Source of the DNA: Candidatus Multivoradales bacterium | GTDB taxonomy: Bacteria > Acidobacteriota > Thermoanaerobaculia > Multivoradales > J023 | NCBI GenBank assembly: GCA_965248925.1 | Contig: CBDFLE010000006.1 | Span: forward strand, 2,656,001-2,720,000 | Length of the DNA stretch: 64,000 bases | Direction of reading: 5' to 3' | Part shown: piece after piece, positions 10,337 to 16,507 of the stretch | How positions within the stretch are numbered: position 1 is the first letter of the stretch | Layout of the letters: the number at the start of each line of letters is the position of its first letter | Notes under the pieces: generated by a model | Seen by the model: only the letters and a program-made list of their open reading frames with translations | Databases searched by the model: none | What the model was told of the DNA's origin: nothing | Program-made: the position numbers and the translations under genes

Positions 10337-10792
10337 CTACTGCTCCGTCGCGGTGTCACCACCACCGAGCATTACCAACTGCGGTTGTAGCGGCAGAGCG
10401 AGCATCTCGAGTGAGACTCTCTCAAGAGCATCACGAAGACTGTCGTTGATCATCTGCCAGTTGGCCCGCAGCAGACAGACCGCTTCTTGGCTGCACTCGC
10501 CCGGAGAATCCTCGATGCACTCGGTAAAAGCAATCGGGCCTTCCAGAGCCGAGATCATCGCCGCTACTGAGATCTTGTCTGCCGAGCGCGCCAGGGCGTA
10601 ACCACCGTGCGCCCCTCGATGGGAGATCAGCAGCCCTTCACGAACCAACAGTCTCAAGGTCTTGCTGATCATCGGCAGGGGAATCTGGGTTTCTGACGCC
10701 AACTCAGGAGCGGTCAGTCGCCGATCCCCATCCCGCGCCAGATGGGTCATCAAGACGATGCCGTAGTCAGCTTGTTTAGTCAGGCGGAACAT
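10337..10792 (-). CDS. Rrf2 family SUF regulator
   Basis: MFRLTKQADYG, RGAHGGYAL, three Cys (C-x7-C-x5-C); first gene of suf operon. Confidence 0.9.
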   Translation of the reverse strand: MFRLTKQADYGIVLMTHLARDGDRRLTAPELASETQIPLPMISKTLRLLVREGLLISHRGAHGGYALARSADKISVAAMISALEGPIAFTECIEDSPGECSQEAVCLLRANWQMINDSLRDALERVSLEMLALPLQPQLVMLGGGDTATEQ

Positions 10793-11065: not shown

Positions 11066-12160
11066 CTAGCCTAGCGTCTGAGGGACCTTGGGATTCGCCC
11101 CCAGCAACGCTGCCACCCAGCGAAAGTCGCGAGTGTTTTCGAGGATGATCTTGAGCACCATGGTCAGCGGGACTGACAACAGCATACCTAGGGGACCCCA
11201 CACCCAACCCCAGAAAAGTAACGAGAGAAAGACCACCAGAGCCGACAAGCCGAATTTTCGGCCCATCAGCTGCGGTTCAGCGAAATTGCCGATCAGCACG
11301 TTGACCACCAAGTATCCCAAGCCAACCAAGAGGGCCCGGCCGACGCCGAGTTCGACCAGGGCGATCAGCACCGCAGGTACCGCCGCGATGATCGATCCCA
11401 GGGTAGGAATGAAATTGAGCAGGAAAGCCACCAGGCCCCAGAGCAGGGGGAAGTCGACTCCGAGCAGCCAAACCCAGGCCGTGACCAAGGTGGCGGTGAC
11501 CAGGCTCACCAATGTCTTGATACGGAGATAGCGCTGGATCTCTTGGCGGGCGTTGGAGAGGCGGCTCAGATAGTCCTTCTTGATTCCGAAAGCTCGCTCC
11601 AGCTTGCGCGGCAGACCGGCAGCCTCGAAGAGCATGAATACCAGCAGCAGCAGCACCAGCATCGACTTGGTGAACAAGAAAGCGATGCCGCGAATCAGCG
11701 TTGCCACCCGGCCGACGACTATGTTGGTTGCCTGATCGACCAGCGCCGAGGTGTCGACGCCGAGTTCTTCGAGCTTGCCCGTATCAAGACCGTGGTCCTC
11801 GAACCACTCGACAGCTTCGGTGGTACGAACTCGCAGCTGCTGGCGATACTTCGGCAAGGCCTCGGTAAAGGCGTTCATCGAGCCGCCCACCGGCAACACG
11901 AAAGCCATCAGAATAGCAACGTTGGCCAACACCGCTAACAGCACCGCGAGCGGTCGGGGAACTCGCTTGCGAAGCAACCAGGAGAGCAAAGGCGAACTGA
12001 GAATGGCGAGAAAGAGAGCTACCAGCATGGGGAGCAGTAGATTGCCAGCATCCTTGAGACCGGCAATGATCACCACCAAGCCTGCCGCACTAACCAGAAA
12101 CCGGGCGCCTGGGGCTTGGTTTTTCCTGGACGCTGCGGGGGAAAGCTGCTCAGAGGACAT
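11066..12160 (-). CDS. AI-2E family transporter (TqsA/PerM-like)
   Basis: Multi-TM; LNFIPTLGSIIA, EPQLMG, FWGWVWGPLGMLLSVPLT. Confidence 0.9.
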   Translation of the reverse strand: MSSEQLSPAASRKNQAPGARFLVSAAGLVVIIAGLKDAGNLLLPMLVALFLAILSSPLLSWLLRKRVPRPLAVLLAVLANVAILMAFVLPVGGSMNAFTEALPKYRQQLRVRTTEAVEWFEDHGLDTGKLEELGVDTSALVDQATNIVVGRVATLIRGIAFLFTKSMLVLLLLVFMLFEAAGLPRKLERAFGIKKDYLSRLSNARQEIQRYLRIKTLVSLVTATLVTAWVWLLGVDFPLLWGLVAFLLNFIPTLGSIIAAVPAVLIALVELGVGRALLVGLGYLVVNVLIGNFAEPQLMGRKFGLSALVVFLSLLFWGWVWGPLGMLLSVPLTMVLKIILENTRDFRWVAALLGANPKVPQTLG

Positions 12161-12299
12161 CGATGCTCATCTTACTCCCTTGCCACGAGTCACGCCGGGT
12201 GGCTTTGCAGCCTCCTCCTGCGGGGATCCGGATCATTGCACCGCAGCTCTCCCCCTTCCCTACCGACCTCTCGATGAGCGAGGCCGTGAGACCTAGGAA

Positions 12300-12632
12300 T
12301 CAGGCTCCCGCCATCTCCTTGAGGCCCTTGAGGATCCTTGCCTTGACGACCCGGCGTGCTGGTTTGGCGGCGATCATGATGTCCTCGCCGGTGAACGGGT
12401 TGCGACCCGGGCGCGCCTTGGTGGCCGGTTTCCTAGTGACCGTCAACTTGAGCAGGCCGGGCAAAGTGAAGACACCAGCGCTGCGCGACTTCAGGTGGCG
12501 TAGCATGAGGTCGGACAACGACTGGAACACGGCGACGATTTCCTTGCGGCTTAGGCCGGTGTCCTCAGCAATGGAAGCGAACAGCTGGGCTTTGGTGTAG
12601 GGGTCACGAATAGCGGTTGTCTTCTTAGACAT
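12300..12632 (-). CDS. HU family DNA-binding protein
   Basis: KAQLFASIAEDTGLS, LPGLLKL, ARPGRNPFTGE, IAAKPA. Confidence 0.9.
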   Translation of the reverse strand: MSKKTTAIRDPYTKAQLFASIAEDTGLSRKEIVAVFQSLSDLMLRHLKSRSAGVFTLPGLLKLTVTRKPATKARPGRNPFTGEDIMIAAKPARRVVKARILKGLKEMAGA

Positions 12633-12856
12633 GGTTCTCTCCAGTTTGGTTGCAACGGTCTTCTTATGTCTGCGGTTTCGCGGCCTGGCCGGTGACGATC
12701 TGCTTGAGCTGTTGGCGGCGCACCAACAATCCGTCCGGGAAATAGCGCTCTAGTTCTGACTTCAACCTCGCCGTTTTGGGGGTTCAGCCATGCCTGCCGT
12801 CGGGTGTCGGCCGAGGTTAGCCGGCGGGCCCGCAGGTTGCAAGAGGACCCAGCCAA

Positions 12857-14173
12857 TCAACAGAGCTTTGGGTTGGATGTCCAGCTCTGTTCGCGAATCT
12901 CCCGCAGTAGGCCAACACTGACCGCGTCTTGCTCGACTGCTTGAAATAGTACCAGCAAGGAGCTCAGAGCCTTGCGGTGAACCTCCCTCGCTTGCAGGAT
13001 CGGTCCCAGCACTCGCACCAAGCGGCGCAGCTCCTGACGACGCCCTTGTTCGGCGTAGATCAGCGCCAGGTCAATGCCGAGAATGGCGCCGTCGTTCCAC
13101 AAGCGCTGAGGGAGCAAGGATTCGAGGGTGGCTTCGAGCAAGGTCTCGGCCCGCGCTAAATCGCCAGCGGCATGGTGTAGTCGGCCTTCGAGCCAACGTA
13201 GCCTGATGATCGCCACCTGGGCGTCCAAACCCTCGGCAATGCGGGTCGCGGCAACCCATTGCTGCCAGGCTTCGTCGAGTCGGCCAAGCTGACAATAGCA
13301 ATGGGCCAGATTGGAGCGCGCCGCCAACGTCTGCTCACCATCGCCACAACCTTCCAACTGCCCGAGCGCGGCCTCGAAGTCGGCGCTGGCGGCCAACATC
13401 TCGCCTTGCTCGAAGTGCAACATGCCGCGGCTGATCAACACTCGGGACAGCTGCTCGGTGGCTCCCGCCAGACGGTAGATTAGGATCGCTTCGTCGAGTC
13501 GCCTGGCGGCGTCTTTCATCGCTTGCCGATCTCGGTCCAACGAGGCCCACTGAGCCTCTACTTCAGCCCGAGCCAGCAAACAACCGCTACCGGCTTGCAA
13601 GTAGCGCTGGGCGCGATCGAAAGCGCGCTGGGAATCGGCTCGGGATTCTTTCTTGACGTTGCCGTTGGCGACTTCGTCGAGCGACAGCATCTTCATACAG
13701 CGATGGGTCAAGCTGTAGATGCTGGACACTTCGCGGCCCAGCAGCTGCGCGACCTCGGCGGCCCTAAAGCCATCGAAGAAGCGCAAACGCAACAGACGTT
13801 GGCACTTGGCCGGTAGTTTGGCCAACTGGCGTTCGATGTCGCTTTTTTCTACCCAGCGGTCTTCCGGGGACGGAATCTGGGGGTTGGAGCCGGCAGCAGT
13901 TTCAGCATCAATCTGTGCCTCGGGGTGACGGCGGCGGCGGCAGTACATCAGGCGTTGATTGACCAGCGTGCGGATCATCCAACCTTCCGGCTCAGCCATT
14001 CGCTCCCAACTGCGCAAGGTGGAGATCACCGTCGTCTGGATCAGATCTTCAGCATACTGTGCTGGCACCCCATATCTCGCCAGAATCTGTTTGAGACGAG
14101 GTTGCAGGCGCCGCACCAACGCTTCGATGGACTCCTCTTCACGGCAGGCGGCAAGATCAGACATGTCAGGCAT
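12857..14173 (-). CDS. ECF-type sigma factor fused to C-terminal TPR domain
   Basis: Sigma2 (AEDLIQ, EGWMIRTLVN), sigma4 (LAKLPAKCQRLLRLRFFDG..AEVAQLLG), then TPR-like helices; start uncertain (14197 TTG, 14173 or 14164 ATG). Confidence 0.8.
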   Translation of the reverse strand: MPDMSDLAACREEESIEALVRRLQPRLKQILARYGVPAQYAEDLIQTTVISTLRSWERMAEPEGWMIRTLVNQRLMYCRRRRHPEAQIDAETAAGSNPQIPSPEDRWVEKSDIERQLAKLPAKCQRLLRLRFFDGFRAAEVAQLLGREVSSIYSLTHRCMKMLSLDEVANGNVKKESRADSQRAFDRAQRYLQAGSGCLLARAEVEAQWASLDRDRQAMKDAARRLDEAILIYRLAGATEQLSRVLISRGMLHFEQGEMLAASADFEAALGQLEGCGDGEQTLAARSNLAHCYCQLGRLDEAWQQWVAATRIAEGLDAQVAIIRLRWLEGRLHHAAGDLARAETLLEATLESLLPQRLWNDGAILGIDLALIYAEQGRRQELRRLVRVLGPILQAREVHRKALSSLLVLFQAVEQDAVSVGLLREIREQSWTSNPKLC

Positions 14174-14267
14174 AGCGTACAATAATATCTGTCCCAACTA
14201 ACGCAGCAGCCCACCTGCCCGACCTTGAACCGGCCGTGCCCGCGGCCCCCTTACATCCCAAAAAGCC

Positions 14268-14375
14268 TCATCTCGATGAAGCGAGGTGATCGCCCCCGAG
14301 GACACCCCAAGGATCGATCAGCGGACCTTGCCGGTCGATCCCGCAATGCGCCGAAGAGAGTTTTTGTACACACAT
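14268..14375 (-). CDS. 35-aa small ORF MCVQKLSSAHCGIDRQGPLIDPWGVLGGDHLASSR
   Basis: AAGGAG 5 nt before ATG (minus strand CCAAGGAGCTGTC-ATG); co-oriented with and upstream of the sigma-TPR gene. Confidence 0.55.
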   Translation of the reverse strand: MCVQKLSSAHCGIDRQGPLIDPWGVLGGDHLASSR

Positions 14376-14662
14376 GACAGCTCCTTGGTCATCAACCGAC
14401 CCGAGCAGATCCTTGCGCGGTCTGTCCGCGCCCCCCGAGCGGCCCTTAGGGCCTCTCGACAACTAGGTGCGGCGAGTCGCCTCTGTTGCGGCATTGGCAG
14501 CGAGATTTCTCACCGTTTTTCCACCCGCGTTGAGAGCGACCACGGCCGAGGTCCCAGAGATCGCTTGCACAGCTGTCTAAAGAGTGCTGCAATGATCCGT
14601 ATCAATCTTCGAACGCCGTTGGGACGACTAGTAGCTGCTTTCTCAAGGAGGACAGGAGAGTC

Positions 14663-16081
14663 ATGGGCGAGGCCAAGATCAGCTTCTTCGAGCAGGTCAA
14701 CAGCAACTTCGACAGAGCTGCCAGCCTGACCGGCCACGATGACGCTTTGCTCGAGCAGATCAAGCAATGCAACAGCGTTTACCACATGAGTTTCCCGCTC
14801 AAACTGGACAACGGTTCGATCGAAGTGGTGCACGCTTGGAGGGCAGAGCACAGCCACCACAAGACGCCTACCAAGGGCGGTTTCCGCTATAGCGCGCAAG
14901 TCAACGAGGATGAGGTGATGGCGCTAGCAGCGCTGATGACCTACAAGTGCGCGATCGTCAACGTACCGTTTGGCGGCGCCAAGGGTGGGGTGAGAATCTC
15001 GCGGCGAGACTACTCCGTCGGCGAACTCGAACGGGTCACCCGGCGCTACACCTACGAGTTAACCCAGAAGAACTTCATCGGCCCGGGCATTGACGTGCCG
15101 GCGCCAGACTACGGCACCGGTCCGCGGGAGATGTCGTGGATGAGCGACACTTACCGCGCGCTCACCGCCAACGATATCGACGCCCTGGCTTGCGTCACCG
15201 GCAAACCGATCGCTCAAGGCGGAGTTCGAGGTCGCACCGAGGCCACTGGGCGCGGCGTTTTTTTCGGCATTCGCGAGACCTGTGAAATCGCAGAAGATAT
15301 GAAGGCTCTTGGCCTGACGGCCGGCCTGGATGGCAAGACGGTGGTGTTGCAGGGTTTCGGCAACGTCGGCTATCACGCCGCCAAATACTTGCAGCGGGCC
15401 GGCGCTCGGATCATCGCCATCGCCGAATACGACGGCGCGATCCTCCACCGCGACGGTATCGACATCGAACTTCTGCAAGAACATCGCCAAGAACACCGCA
15501 CGATCACCACCTACCCTGGCGTCGAGCGTTTGGCCCATAGCCATGACGCCCTGTTCTTGGACTGCGACATCTTGGTTCCGGCGGCGCTTGAGAACCAGAT
15601 CACGGCCGAAAATGCAGCTCTGGTGCAGGCCAAGATCATCGCCGAGGCGGCCAACGGGCCGCTGACCGCGGCCGCCAGCCAGAGCTTGGCGGAGCGTGGC
15701 GTGTTGGTGATTCCGGACACCTTCCTCAACGCTGGCGGCGTGGTGGTGTCTTACTTCGAGTGGGTCAAGAACCTGGCCCATGTACGTTTTGGGCGGCTGC
15801 AGAAGCGCTGGCAGAGCCAGGCCTACCGGGGTCTATTGGGGGCGGTTCAAGATATGACTGGCCAGCGTTTCCCCAGCGAAGTGGTCGAAGCTTTCGTTGG
15901 CGGTCCCGACGAGATCGACTTGGTCAACTCGGGCTTGGAAGAAACCATGGTCGGCGCCTTTCAAGAGATCCGCGGCGTGCGCCAGAAACACGGTGACCAA
16001 ATCGACCTGCGCACCGCGGCTTTCGCCAGCGCCATCGACAAGATCGTCATCAGCTACGAGGATTTGGGGATCTTTCCCTGA
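14663..16081 (+). CDS. gdhA: Glu/Leu/Phe/Val dehydrogenase (glutamate dehydrogenase)
   Basis: PTKGG, MTYKCA, PFGGAKGG, DVPAPD, VTGKP, QGFGNVG, EAANGP, NAGGVVVSYFEW. Confidence 0.93.
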   Translation: MGEAKISFFEQVNSNFDRAASLTGHDDALLEQIKQCNSVYHMSFPLKLDNGSIEVVHAWRAEHSHHKTPTKGGFRYSAQVNEDEVMALAALMTYKCAIVNVPFGGAKGGVRISRRDYSVGELERVTRRYTYELTQKNFIGPGIDVPAPDYGTGPREMSWMSDTYRALTANDIDALACVTGKPIAQGGVRGRTEATGRGVFFGIRETCEIAEDMKALGLTAGLDGKTVVLQGFGNVGYHAAKYLQRAGARIIAIAEYDGAILHRDGIDIELLQEHRQEHRTITTYPGVERLAHSHDALFLDCDILVPAALENQITAENAALVQAKIIAEAANGPLTAAASQSLAERGVLVIPDTFLNAGGVVVSYFEWVKNLAHVRFGRLQKRWQSQAYRGLLGAVQDMTGQRFPSEVVEAFVGGPDEIDLVNSGLEETMVGAFQEIRGVRQKHGDQIDLRTAAFASAIDKIVISYEDLGIFP

Positions 16082-16198: not shown

Positions 16199-16507
16199 TC
16201 AATCAAAATCCCAGGGGCGCGGCGGCGGTTCGGCATCTGGTTCTTTCTCCGCTCGCTTGAGCGCCTCGCTAAATTTTTCTTCCATCAGCCGGTCGCTGTC
16301 TTCGAGGGCGGTCATCTCGCGCTTGAAAACATCGCCGGCCCGATCTTTGGCAGCATCGACATCCGCTAGCAGGTCATCGAAGCTGTGCCCACCGACGATC
16401 GGTTTCGGCGCTTCCTGGTGCAGCAAAACTTGACCGCTGGCCACGTCAATGACCAACTCGCCACGACAGATCGGGCATTCGACTTTGAGGGATTCTGCGT
16501 CACTCAC
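16199..16507 (-). CDS. Small hypothetical protein with N-terminal CPxC motif
   Basis: VECPICRGELVID, charged helical C-terminus ending PRPWDFD. Confidence 0.75.
   Translation of the reverse strand: MSDAESLKVECPICRGELVIDVASGQVLLHQEAPKPIVGGHSFDDLLADVDAAKDRAGDVFKREMTALEDSDRLMEEKFSEALKRAEKEPDAEPPPRPWDFD

Follow-up and report, generated by a model that had tools for sequence, protein, structure and literature searches.

A sigma factor joined to a tetratricopeptide-repeat sensor beside a candidate peptide gene in the Acidobacteriota class Thermoanaerobaculia

Sensing of peptides by cytoplasmic tetratricopeptide-repeat (TPR) proteins is, to our knowledge, textbook material only for Gram-positive Bacillota, their phages and their plasmids. 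In the RRNPP(A) systems (Rap-Phr, NprR-NprX, PlcR-PapR, PrgX, AimR-AimP and Rgg-SHP), a cytoplasmic TPR-type receptor is encoded beside a small gene. Here we describe a locus with a similar layout in a 64,000-nucleotide stretch of the genome of a Candidatus Multivoradales bacterium (the window), where a gene joining a sigma factor of the extracytoplasmic function (ECF) type to a TPR domain is preceded by a small open reading frame (sORF) of 35 codons. As in RRNPP(A) systems, the conserved C-terminal part of the small gene product, in this case the motif GxxΦDPxG, is the putative ligand. The organism belongs to the Thermoanaerobaculia, a diderm soil class with almost no cultured members, and the diderm phylum Acidobacteriota would be new for RRNPP. 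We read the locus as a lineage-specific, single-chain derivative of a peptide-linked module of sigma factor and TPR-bearing anti-sigma factor, in which binding of the peptide to the TPR domain would change sigma access, and we put the probability of this reading at about 0.5.

The locus also departs from the RRNPP(A) systems. Its output is an ECF sigma factor, not a helix-turn-helix (HTH) domain or a phosphatase, and no RRNPP-specific Pfam family is matched, only generic TPR families. The adjacency of small gene and receptor gene is that of an RRNPP(A) pro-peptide; in contrast, the sORF has no signal peptide and its motif is followed by an 11-residue tail. Two papers describe RRNPP systems as belonging to Firmicutes and their mobile elements (PMC10075063, PMC9765709), and a term search of the second paper found no mention of 'Acidobacteria', 'Gram-negative' or 'sigma' (PMC9765709). 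A wider literature search, confined to sources other than subscription journals, returned nothing on RRNPP in Acidobacteriota, nothing on Thermoanaerobaculia sigma factors and peptides, and nothing joining anti-sigma, tetratricopeptide, pheromone and ECF.

The other close comparison is with the ECF42 sigma factors, which likewise combine sigma regions 2 and 4 with about 200-260 residues of TPR in one chain and have no anti-sigma gene adjacent. Their C-terminal extension is described as essential and is thought to act by binding another protein (PMC8999054, PMC7826278). The TPR part in the window, unlike that of ECF42, is homologous to a separate partner gene and appears to have been fused recently, and it is not conserved as a fusion. 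Pfam matched only generic TPRs in this TPR part and not DUF6596, which we take to be the domain marking ECF42 tails. The neighbouring genes also differ, since they encode an HU-type protein and a glutamate dehydrogenase and not the DGPF/YCII-like protein that is presumably the conserved small neighbour of ECF42.

The sigma factor and its TPR sensor

The initial annotation had described a gene in which sigma regions 2 and 4 are joined to TPR repeats, with no anti-sigma gene adjacent. Both points are borne out: the gene encodes 438 residues with the parts listed below, and by Pfam its flanking genes belong to the HU-type (PF00216, 12300-12632) and Glu/Leu/Phe/Val (glutamate) dehydrogenase (14663-16081, plus strand) families. 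Translation is taken from an ATG at 14173; a TTG at 14197 would give 446 residues. The parts of the gene are as follows.

12857..14173, minus strand: 438-residue gene, in-frame fusion of an ECF sigma factor with the TPR sensor region of a partner protein (open reading frame list, Pfam, BLASTP)
13928..14119, minus strand: sigma region 2, residues 19-82 (Pfam PF04542, Sigma70_r2, E 1.3e-9)
13685..13840, minus strand: sigma region 4, residues 112-163 (Pfam PF08281, Sigma70_r4_2, E 1.7e-8)
13643..13675, minus strand: fusion joint, at about residues 167-177 (BLASTP)
12860..13642, minus strand: TPR sensor part, residues 178-438, 13 predicted helices (BLASTP, AlphaFold2, Foldseek)

Judged by its domain content, with regions 2 and 4 only and without regions 1.1 or 3, the sigma part is an ECF (group 4) sigma-70 factor. 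The NCBIfam model TIGR02937 is matched with 58.7 bits (cut-off 42.9), and no specific NCBIfam sigma subfamily reaches its cut-off, so the assignment stays at the level of the ECF superfamily. The C-terminal part is matched by TPR_12 at residues 282-351 (E 1.4e-5, 25.6 bits, under the curated 30.1), and beyond generic TPRs no Pfam family covers it.

In the two nearest of the genomes compared, which belong to another genus (g9) of the same family, the sigma factor (177-181 residues) and its partner (about 400-430 residues) are encoded by separate, overlapping genes. Residues 4-163 of the window protein are 53% identical to the free sigma factor of these genomes, and residues 181-378 align to residues 195-392 of their partner (BLASTP). 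The closest protein found (P0002) is an unfused partner of 418 residues, to which window residues 181-430 are 62% identical over residues 165-414, with 0 gaps. At the joint, the similarity to free sigma factors stops and the similarity to the partner starts, at about partner residue 165. These alignments make the window gene an in-frame fusion that lacks about the first 164 residues of the partner, and they indicate that it arose by an in-frame deletion that removed those residues and joined the TPR sensor to the sigma factor. The TPR part had been likened in the initial annotation to the C-terminal extensions that control some ECF groups, and this comparison does not hold, since the sensor belongs to a partner that the nearest relatives encode by a gene of its own.

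No other sigma-TPR fusion was found among the best 150 of 5980 matches in 1.84 billion representatives, four two-stretch matches among those 150 having no sigma domain when checked against Pfam, and none of the 15 matches returned by a word-based protein search is another such fusion. The fusion is therefore a one-off and not a conserved class. Logan contigs from four runs of one sample are identical to positions 12800-14500 with 0 differences, so that neither the fusion nor the sORF is an artefact of one assembler.

AlphaFold2 predicts 13 helices in the C-terminal 260 residues (pLDDT 89.1, pTM 0.85), and the window TPR part retains every invariant column of a 46-sequence alignment and shows no membrane segment. 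When the model was compared with known structures by Foldseek, LGN/Pins (5a6c, TMq 0.71), kinesin light chain (KLC) and BtubC ranked first, and Rap proteins with bound pheromones stood at ranks 35-44. The matches to Rap (4gyo, TMq 0.71, root-mean-square deviation 4.3) and to phage phi3T Rap with its pheromone (8rsv) are a likeness to RRNPP(A), placed below LGN, KLC and others. The predicted fold is of the peptide-binding type in general, and says nothing on RRNPP membership.

One of the two nearest genomes (L016) is syntenic with the window across the genes for HU, partner, sigma factor, Zn-ribbon protein and substrate-binding protein. The sigma and Zn-ribbon genes are direct neighbours in L016, about 48 nt apart, whereas in the window the sigma/TPR gene and the 102-residue Zn-ribbon gene (16199-16507, minus strand) have the dehydrogenase gene between them. 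The dehydrogenase gene was thus either gained in the window genome or lost in L016. Past the HU gene, the window encodes an AI-2E-family transporter (11066-12160, minus strand) and an Rrf2-family regulator (10337-10792, minus strand), for which no link to the locus was seen.

A short motif coupled to TPR genes

The partner proteins have a median length of 458 residues across Thermoanaerobaculia. They are predicted to be soluble, as a 19-residue segment with a Kyte-Doolittle value of at least 1.6 occurs in only 5 of 110 TPR partners and always within a conserved TPR helix. Many of them start with a conserved G-x-L...R-x-[IV]-x-R-H-L-L-x2-C-x2-C stretch, and it is at this head that the partners of related sigma factors resemble the ZAS/zf-HC2 anti-sigma factors (RsrA, ChrR). 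The spacing of the head differs from that of these anti-sigma factors, being H-x4-C-x2-C and not the classical H-x3-C-x2-C, which fits one of 93 partners. Pfam zf-HC2 is matched in the relative P0021 (E 7.2e-7, 29.6 bits, above the cut-off of 22.2), in none of seven partner N-termini, and is not among the 25 listed of the 31 Pfam families found for 57 members of alignment A3. With this partial support, we infer that the partner is a soluble anti-sigma factor composed of a ZAS-like head and a TPR sensor. The head is absent from the window protein, from P0002 and from the L016 partner. The TPR domain also occurs fused to XRE-type and AraC-type DNA-binding domains. Two longer proteins may be natural tandem fusions or gene-calling run-ons: P0021 (916 residues) holds two partner-like TPR units and the zf-HC2 head in one chain, and in P0097 (1090 residues) an XRE-HTH/TPR unit comes after a partner-like TPR unit.

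In an early sample of order-level relatives, co-oriented open reading frames (ORFs) ending in the motif lay beside sigma-partner pairs. We then took 75 loci with the TPR profile (alignment A2) from named Thermoanaerobaculia genomes. At 35 of them the motif occurs, in one to four copies, in a small protein that has a signal-like hydrophobic N-terminus and an amphipathic W/L-rich helix. A signal peptide was called from a hydrophobic 10-residue segment (Kyte-Doolittle at least 2.0) in the first 35 residues, plus inspection; since the same filter chose the set, the share of proteins with a signal peptide is not an independent count. Five motif ORFs, short or long, that failed the filter (L090, L092, L112, L114 and the second of L127) were excluded, and the row for L095 was rejected as an alternative-frame artefact. 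All 35 small-protein genes share the strand of the TPR gene, and the gene that follows encodes a sigma factor at 20 loci (median gap 111.5 nt, range 34-135) and the TPR partner at 14. The opposite strand has just two motif ORFs, both in an alternative frame within a sigma gene. In 46 small proteins, the last motif is followed by 0 residues in 15, by 2 in 19 and by 5-26 in 12; the DPWG variant accounts for 4 of 65 motif copies.

The initial annotation had mentioned, as unverified, small proteins with D-x-G-x-x-I-D-P-x-G near TPR genes of Thermoanaerobaculia and had proposed a pattern search for motif sORFs near TPR homologues. Such proteins do exist and their link to TPR genes is strong, both at these 35 loci of the relatives and in the pairs of the window genome described below. 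No Pfam or NCBIfam family covers the small motif proteins of the relatives. For one of them, the ESM Atlas gave 'hypothetical protein' clusters from Acidobacteriota (score 0.89), which is a lead only. Their signal peptides are a further likeness to RRNPP(A). At the array-type loci L054-L081, a conserved block lies about 60-170 nt upstream of the small gene, with TGTCC, GCGGTAACTCT about 15 nt further on, and after that GCCTATGGCTATTC and a purine-rich ribosome site. The block is a candidate for a sigma-dependent promoter with a leader hairpin. A different conserved G+C-rich hairpin is shared by L102, L117, L119, L122 and L124.

In the genome of the window itself, the TPR profile matches 75 ORFs of at least 250 residues. 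Twenty-seven of these are paired with a convergent sORF ending in P-x-G-stop, with its stop codon -4 to +18 nt from that of the TPR gene, against a background of 12 among 4358 other gene-like ORFs; cruder counts of paired paralogues had given 6 of 19 and then 9 of 19. The 27 pairs represent 24 distinct ones because three are identical copies. The motif and the TPR genes are thus genetically coupled in this genome as well as in the relatives. The peptides are 11-43 residues long, have no leader and, with few exceptions, follow a strong Shine-Dalgarno sequence. Convergent, leaderless peptide genes are reminiscent of the Rgg-SHP layout. A profile built from 46 small proteins of the relatives found no long secreted form among all ORFs of the window genome (best E 0.092).

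The nine C-terminal residues of these peptides conform to [FYW]-G-x-x-[IVL]-x-P-x-G. An aromatic residue precedes the first Gly in 20 of the 24 distinct peptides, and the stop codon follows directly after the last Gly in all 24. The invariant Pro is encoded by CCC (5), CCG (10), CCA (6) and CCT (3), the last Gly by GGT (4), GGC (16), GGG (2) and GGA (2), and all three stop codons are used. As all four synonymous codons of both residues and every stop codon occur, the constraint acts on the protein and not on a DNA site. A single motif common to all pairs, and a free C-terminal Gly in this set, distinguish the family from RRNPP(A).

Among 25 peptide-linked TPR ORFs scanned for HTH domains (E up to 1e-5), four have an AraC-type and four an XRE-type domain; HTH_18 was found in 4 of the 25, versus 6 of 11 other TPR ORFs scanned. 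The paralogues with an XRE-type HTH before the TPR resemble RRNPP(A) receptors. Overall, the motif accompanies the TPR domain in three gene arrangements (5' of the sigma gene, 5' of the partner gene, or convergent at the 3' end) and with four types of output (ECF partner, XRE-HTH, AraC-HTH and sigma fusion), for which the simplest reading is that the TPR groove recognises the motif directly. The leaderless forms suggest that the peptide may act inside the cell; the alternative is export and re-uptake, as in RRNPP.

Several pairs have features of their own. On contig C4 (285 kb), six pairs of TPR regulator and convergent peptide occur at steps of 20-30 kb (TPR ORFs at 168176-169534, 188008-189360, 202289-203647, 222135-223499, 243247-244647 and 272049-273416). 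Four of the six regulators have an XRE-type HTH_31 domain, and behind at least three of the pairs come very long ORFs whose products have Ig-like and Glucodextran_B domains (L129:3437-6100 and counterparts). The set has the look of a cassette present in several copies, perhaps plasmid-borne. One TPR ORF of 450 residues occurs three times (C5:39734-41086, C5:52060-53412 and C4:188008-189360) with equal profile score and the same convergent peptide, which suggests a recently copied or mobile unit. The TPR paralogue at C6:4569905-4570909 has one in-frame TAA, with the motif peptide still convergent 10 nt behind it, and is probably a fresh pseudogene of a pair.

The small open reading frame in the window

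The sORF and its surroundings comprise the following features.

14268..14375, minus strand: sORF of 35 codons followed by TGA, candidate leaderless peptide of the GxxΦDPxG family (sequence and ORF list)
14381..14386, minus strand: Shine-Dalgarno sequence AAGGAG, 5 nt (CTGTC) 5' of the ATG (sequence)
14304..14327, minus strand: motif G-P-L-I-D-P-W-G, codons 17-24 of the sORF, followed by the 11-residue tail (sequence)
14265..14282, minus strand: weak terminator-like hairpin and T-run across the sORF stop, probably not significant (hairpin scan)
14376..14662, no strand assigned: spacer shared with the divergent glutamate dehydrogenase gene, with no Rfam family and no significant fold

The start signal, the 35 codons and the gap of 70-95 nt to the co-oriented gene that the initial annotation reported all stand: the frame runs from an ATG at 14375-14373 to a TGA at 14270-14268 and ends 95 nt before the ATG of the sigma/TPR gene, or 70 nt before the alternative TTG. 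The same frame is also open from a TTG at 14462 (64 residues), which has no Shine-Dalgarno sequence. The peptide has no hydrophobic N-terminus, and the lack of a signal sequence, already pointed out as a caveat in that annotation, is no oddity here because all motif peptides of the genome are leaderless.

The size and the Shine-Dalgarno type of the sORF agree with those of 17 other motif peptides of the genome (AAGGAG, GGGAG, AGGAG or GAGGAG, 5-8 nt 5' of the ATG). As in the relatives, it is co-oriented with and 5' of the sigma gene, its motif lies within 26 residues of the stop codon, and its gap falls within the 34-135 nt found there. Over its 15.96 million six-frame positions, the genome has 114 copies of the pattern G..[ILVM]DP.G; 13 copies have a Met upstream in the same frame and no more than 26 residues after the motif. 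From these counts, 0.0035 occurrences are expected by chance on the minus strand of the 489-nt spacer, or 0.0004 if a Met-started frame and a short tail are required, in a count that already includes the true members. Weighed against the differences described below, the sORF probably descends from or belongs to the motif family, and the chances that it is still a working gene are about evenly balanced.

The sORF matches no Pfam family. Its GC content by codon position is.64/.53/.56, compared with about.65/.42/.75 in neighbouring genes, which decides nothing because well-supported peptides of the genome are equally atypical. The region has five terminator-like sites, where shuffled sequences give 2.2 +/- 1.5. 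RNA folding near the sORF yields z-scores of -0.28 (the terminator-like hairpin), -1.73 and -0.41, and therefore no RNA structure is claimed. A scan of 12000-15000 against Rfam gave nothing at E up to 1, and no convincing ECF-type promoter was seen when the spacer was inspected by eye. A 'DLWDL' stretch upstream in another frame scored -1.2 bits with the profile of the relatives' small proteins and was rejected. The only other tailed copy of the motif seen in the genome is in a convergent ORF 126 nt behind the AraC-TPR gene C6:3268047-3269813 (minus strand), where G-I-D-P-F-G is followed by 10 residues.

Readings of the locus

The single-chain reading starts from a module of three genes common in Thermoanaerobaculia. 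One encodes a small protein ending in one or more GxxΦDPxG units, the second an ECF sigma factor, and the third the soluble partner, in which a ZAS-like head is combined with the TPR sensor. Binding of the peptide to the TPR sensor of this anti-sigma factor would free or trap the sigma factor. In the window, the head presumed to hold the sigma factor is gone and the sensor is tethered to the sigma factor, so the peptide would act within one chain. Most probably, the concave face of the TPR superhelix would bind the IDPWG segment, and its occupancy would alter the ability of the tethered sigma domains to associate with RNA polymerase. The small gene would be a 35-codon leaderless form with an intact motif, like the other motif peptides of the genome. 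A complex prediction with the TPR part (alignment A2) and the 35-mer scored 0.19 and 0.14 (mark 0.32), values that bear neither way on binding.

A number of observations weigh against this reading. All ECF-linked relatives have a signal peptide and an amphipathic W/L-rich helix, and the sORF has neither. It has Gln where the peptides of its own genome carry the aromatic residue, and runs 11 codons past the motif Gly at which all 24 distinct peptides end. The profile of the relatives' small proteins scores it at only 2.2 bits (i-E 0.099 in a six-sequence database), which is not significant. Sigma genes preceded by a small gene are no closer to the window sigma factor than the others are (they make up 4 of its top 20, compared with 20 of 117 overall, Mann-Whitney p 0.60). 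Genome-wide, 24 ORFs end in [ILVM]DP.G-stop and permuted patterns give 6-25; with no excess, the signal of the motif-ended ORFs lies only in their placement. A small gene is absent upstream of the sigma gene in the two nearest genomes, where the gap measures about 48 nt (L016) or 122 nt (L015). No close relative that could show whether the sORF is conserved was found: genus g1 is represented by the window genome alone, a metagenome scan for close relatives returned only five distant loci, 36% identical over 64 residues, and the contig of P0002 is just 1371 nt long. AlphaFold2 gives the whole chain a pLDDT of 86.6 and a pTM of 0.66, compared with 0.85 for the TPR part alone, so no fixed packing of sigma against TPR is predicted; this model used alignment A3, in which partner N-termini are set against the sigma part, so the alignment behind its sigma half is noisy. 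Finally, since the fusion is unique and the head and first repeats of the partner are lost, it may be a recent lesion.

Taken further, the last point leads to a decaying relic, a less likely reading but a serious rival. The deletion would have fused the sigma factor to the rump of its partner, the small gene would have lost its 5' part, perhaps as the glutamate dehydrogenase gene arrived, the 35-codon ORF would be the part of a defunct gene that is still open at its 3' end, and the fused protein would have lost its regulation or its activity. That the fusion is known from this genome alone fits such a history, as do the missing signal peptide and helix together with the 11-residue tail, the absence of a small gene at that place in the nearest genomes, and a dehydrogenase gene that splits genes adjacent in L016. 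Decay is harder to reconcile with an intact frame of 438 codons that keeps all invariant TPR columns and shows 0 gaps against P0002 across 250 residues, or with an intact motif behind a strong Shine-Dalgarno sequence well spaced from its ATG. The composition of the sORF, which is unlike that of neighbouring genes, could speak for a relic, but leaderless motif peptides of 11-43 residues and equally atypical composition are the rule in this genome, and tails of 5-26 residues occur in 12 of the 46 relatives.

The coupling could also be real without the small proteins acting as signals for a receptor. They might be products of the regulon, for example secreted amphipathic peptides, or secretion substrates chaperoned by the TPR protein, whose export would free the TPR to act on sigma factor or DNA. 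The latter recalls type III secretion, where the TPR chaperones IpgC and SicA bind short motifs of secreted proteins and control the AraC-type activators MxiE and InvF. The paralogues of the window genome that join AraC-HTH and TPR in one chain beside a motif peptide are similar, and their number favours the idea; unlike those systems, the locus contains no secretion system and its TPR domains are far larger. The Sec-type signal peptides of the ECF-linked small proteins, with TPR partners that are cytoplasmic, and the place of the small gene as the first of a presumed operon, are also what such readings predict. However, the peptides of the window genome have no signal peptide and some are just 11-19 residues long, conservation is confined to the nine C-terminal residues and the free end, which suits a ligand better than an exported product, and the motif is paired with three unrelated output domains. 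Both forms of this explanation, taken jointly, seem improbable to us.

A chance ORF in the G+C-rich spacer with a coincidental motif is very improbable. Short ORFs are plentiful (111 of at least 30 residues between 9000 and 19000), so that a 35-codon ORF by itself is unremarkable, and the 35-mer has neither a sequence relative in the genome nor a significant profile score. Against coincidence stand the 0.0004-0.0035 motifs expected in the spacer, the consensus Shine-Dalgarno sequence at five nucleotides, and a place and strand typical of the family.

At these loci, the genetic logic of the Bacillota systems is linked to an ECF sigma/anti-sigma switch and comes in four output formats, with more than 20 pairs in one genome. 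Particular to the window genome are the sigma-TPR chain without an anti-sigma head, the leaderless peptides with free ends and the size of the family in a single genome. A broader and more tentative view, to which we give less credence, is that this genome contains a network of at least 24 distinct leaderless peptides, each with its own XRE-, AraC- or other TPR regulator and read by its free [FYW]-G-x-x-Φ-x-P-x-G end, and that the window locus is the single-chain extreme of it. A peptide of 35 residues might then gate the recruitment of RNA polymerase by a sigma factor with a built-in receptor and no anti-sigma factor. On this broader view, it would be the first sigma factor gated by a peptide, within the first family of peptide-pheromone type outside Bacillota. 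The interest of the window locus within this undescribed family is tempered by the real chance of a recent lesion, and it is at the same time the cheapest test object of the family, with one protein, one peptide and one read-out. If binding is true, the family would add a new type of input to ECF sigma factors and provide short, probably orthogonal peptide-regulator pairs for synthetic biology, and, since the ligands are predictable from sequence, it would make peptide signalling in Acidobacteriota, between cells or within them, directly testable.

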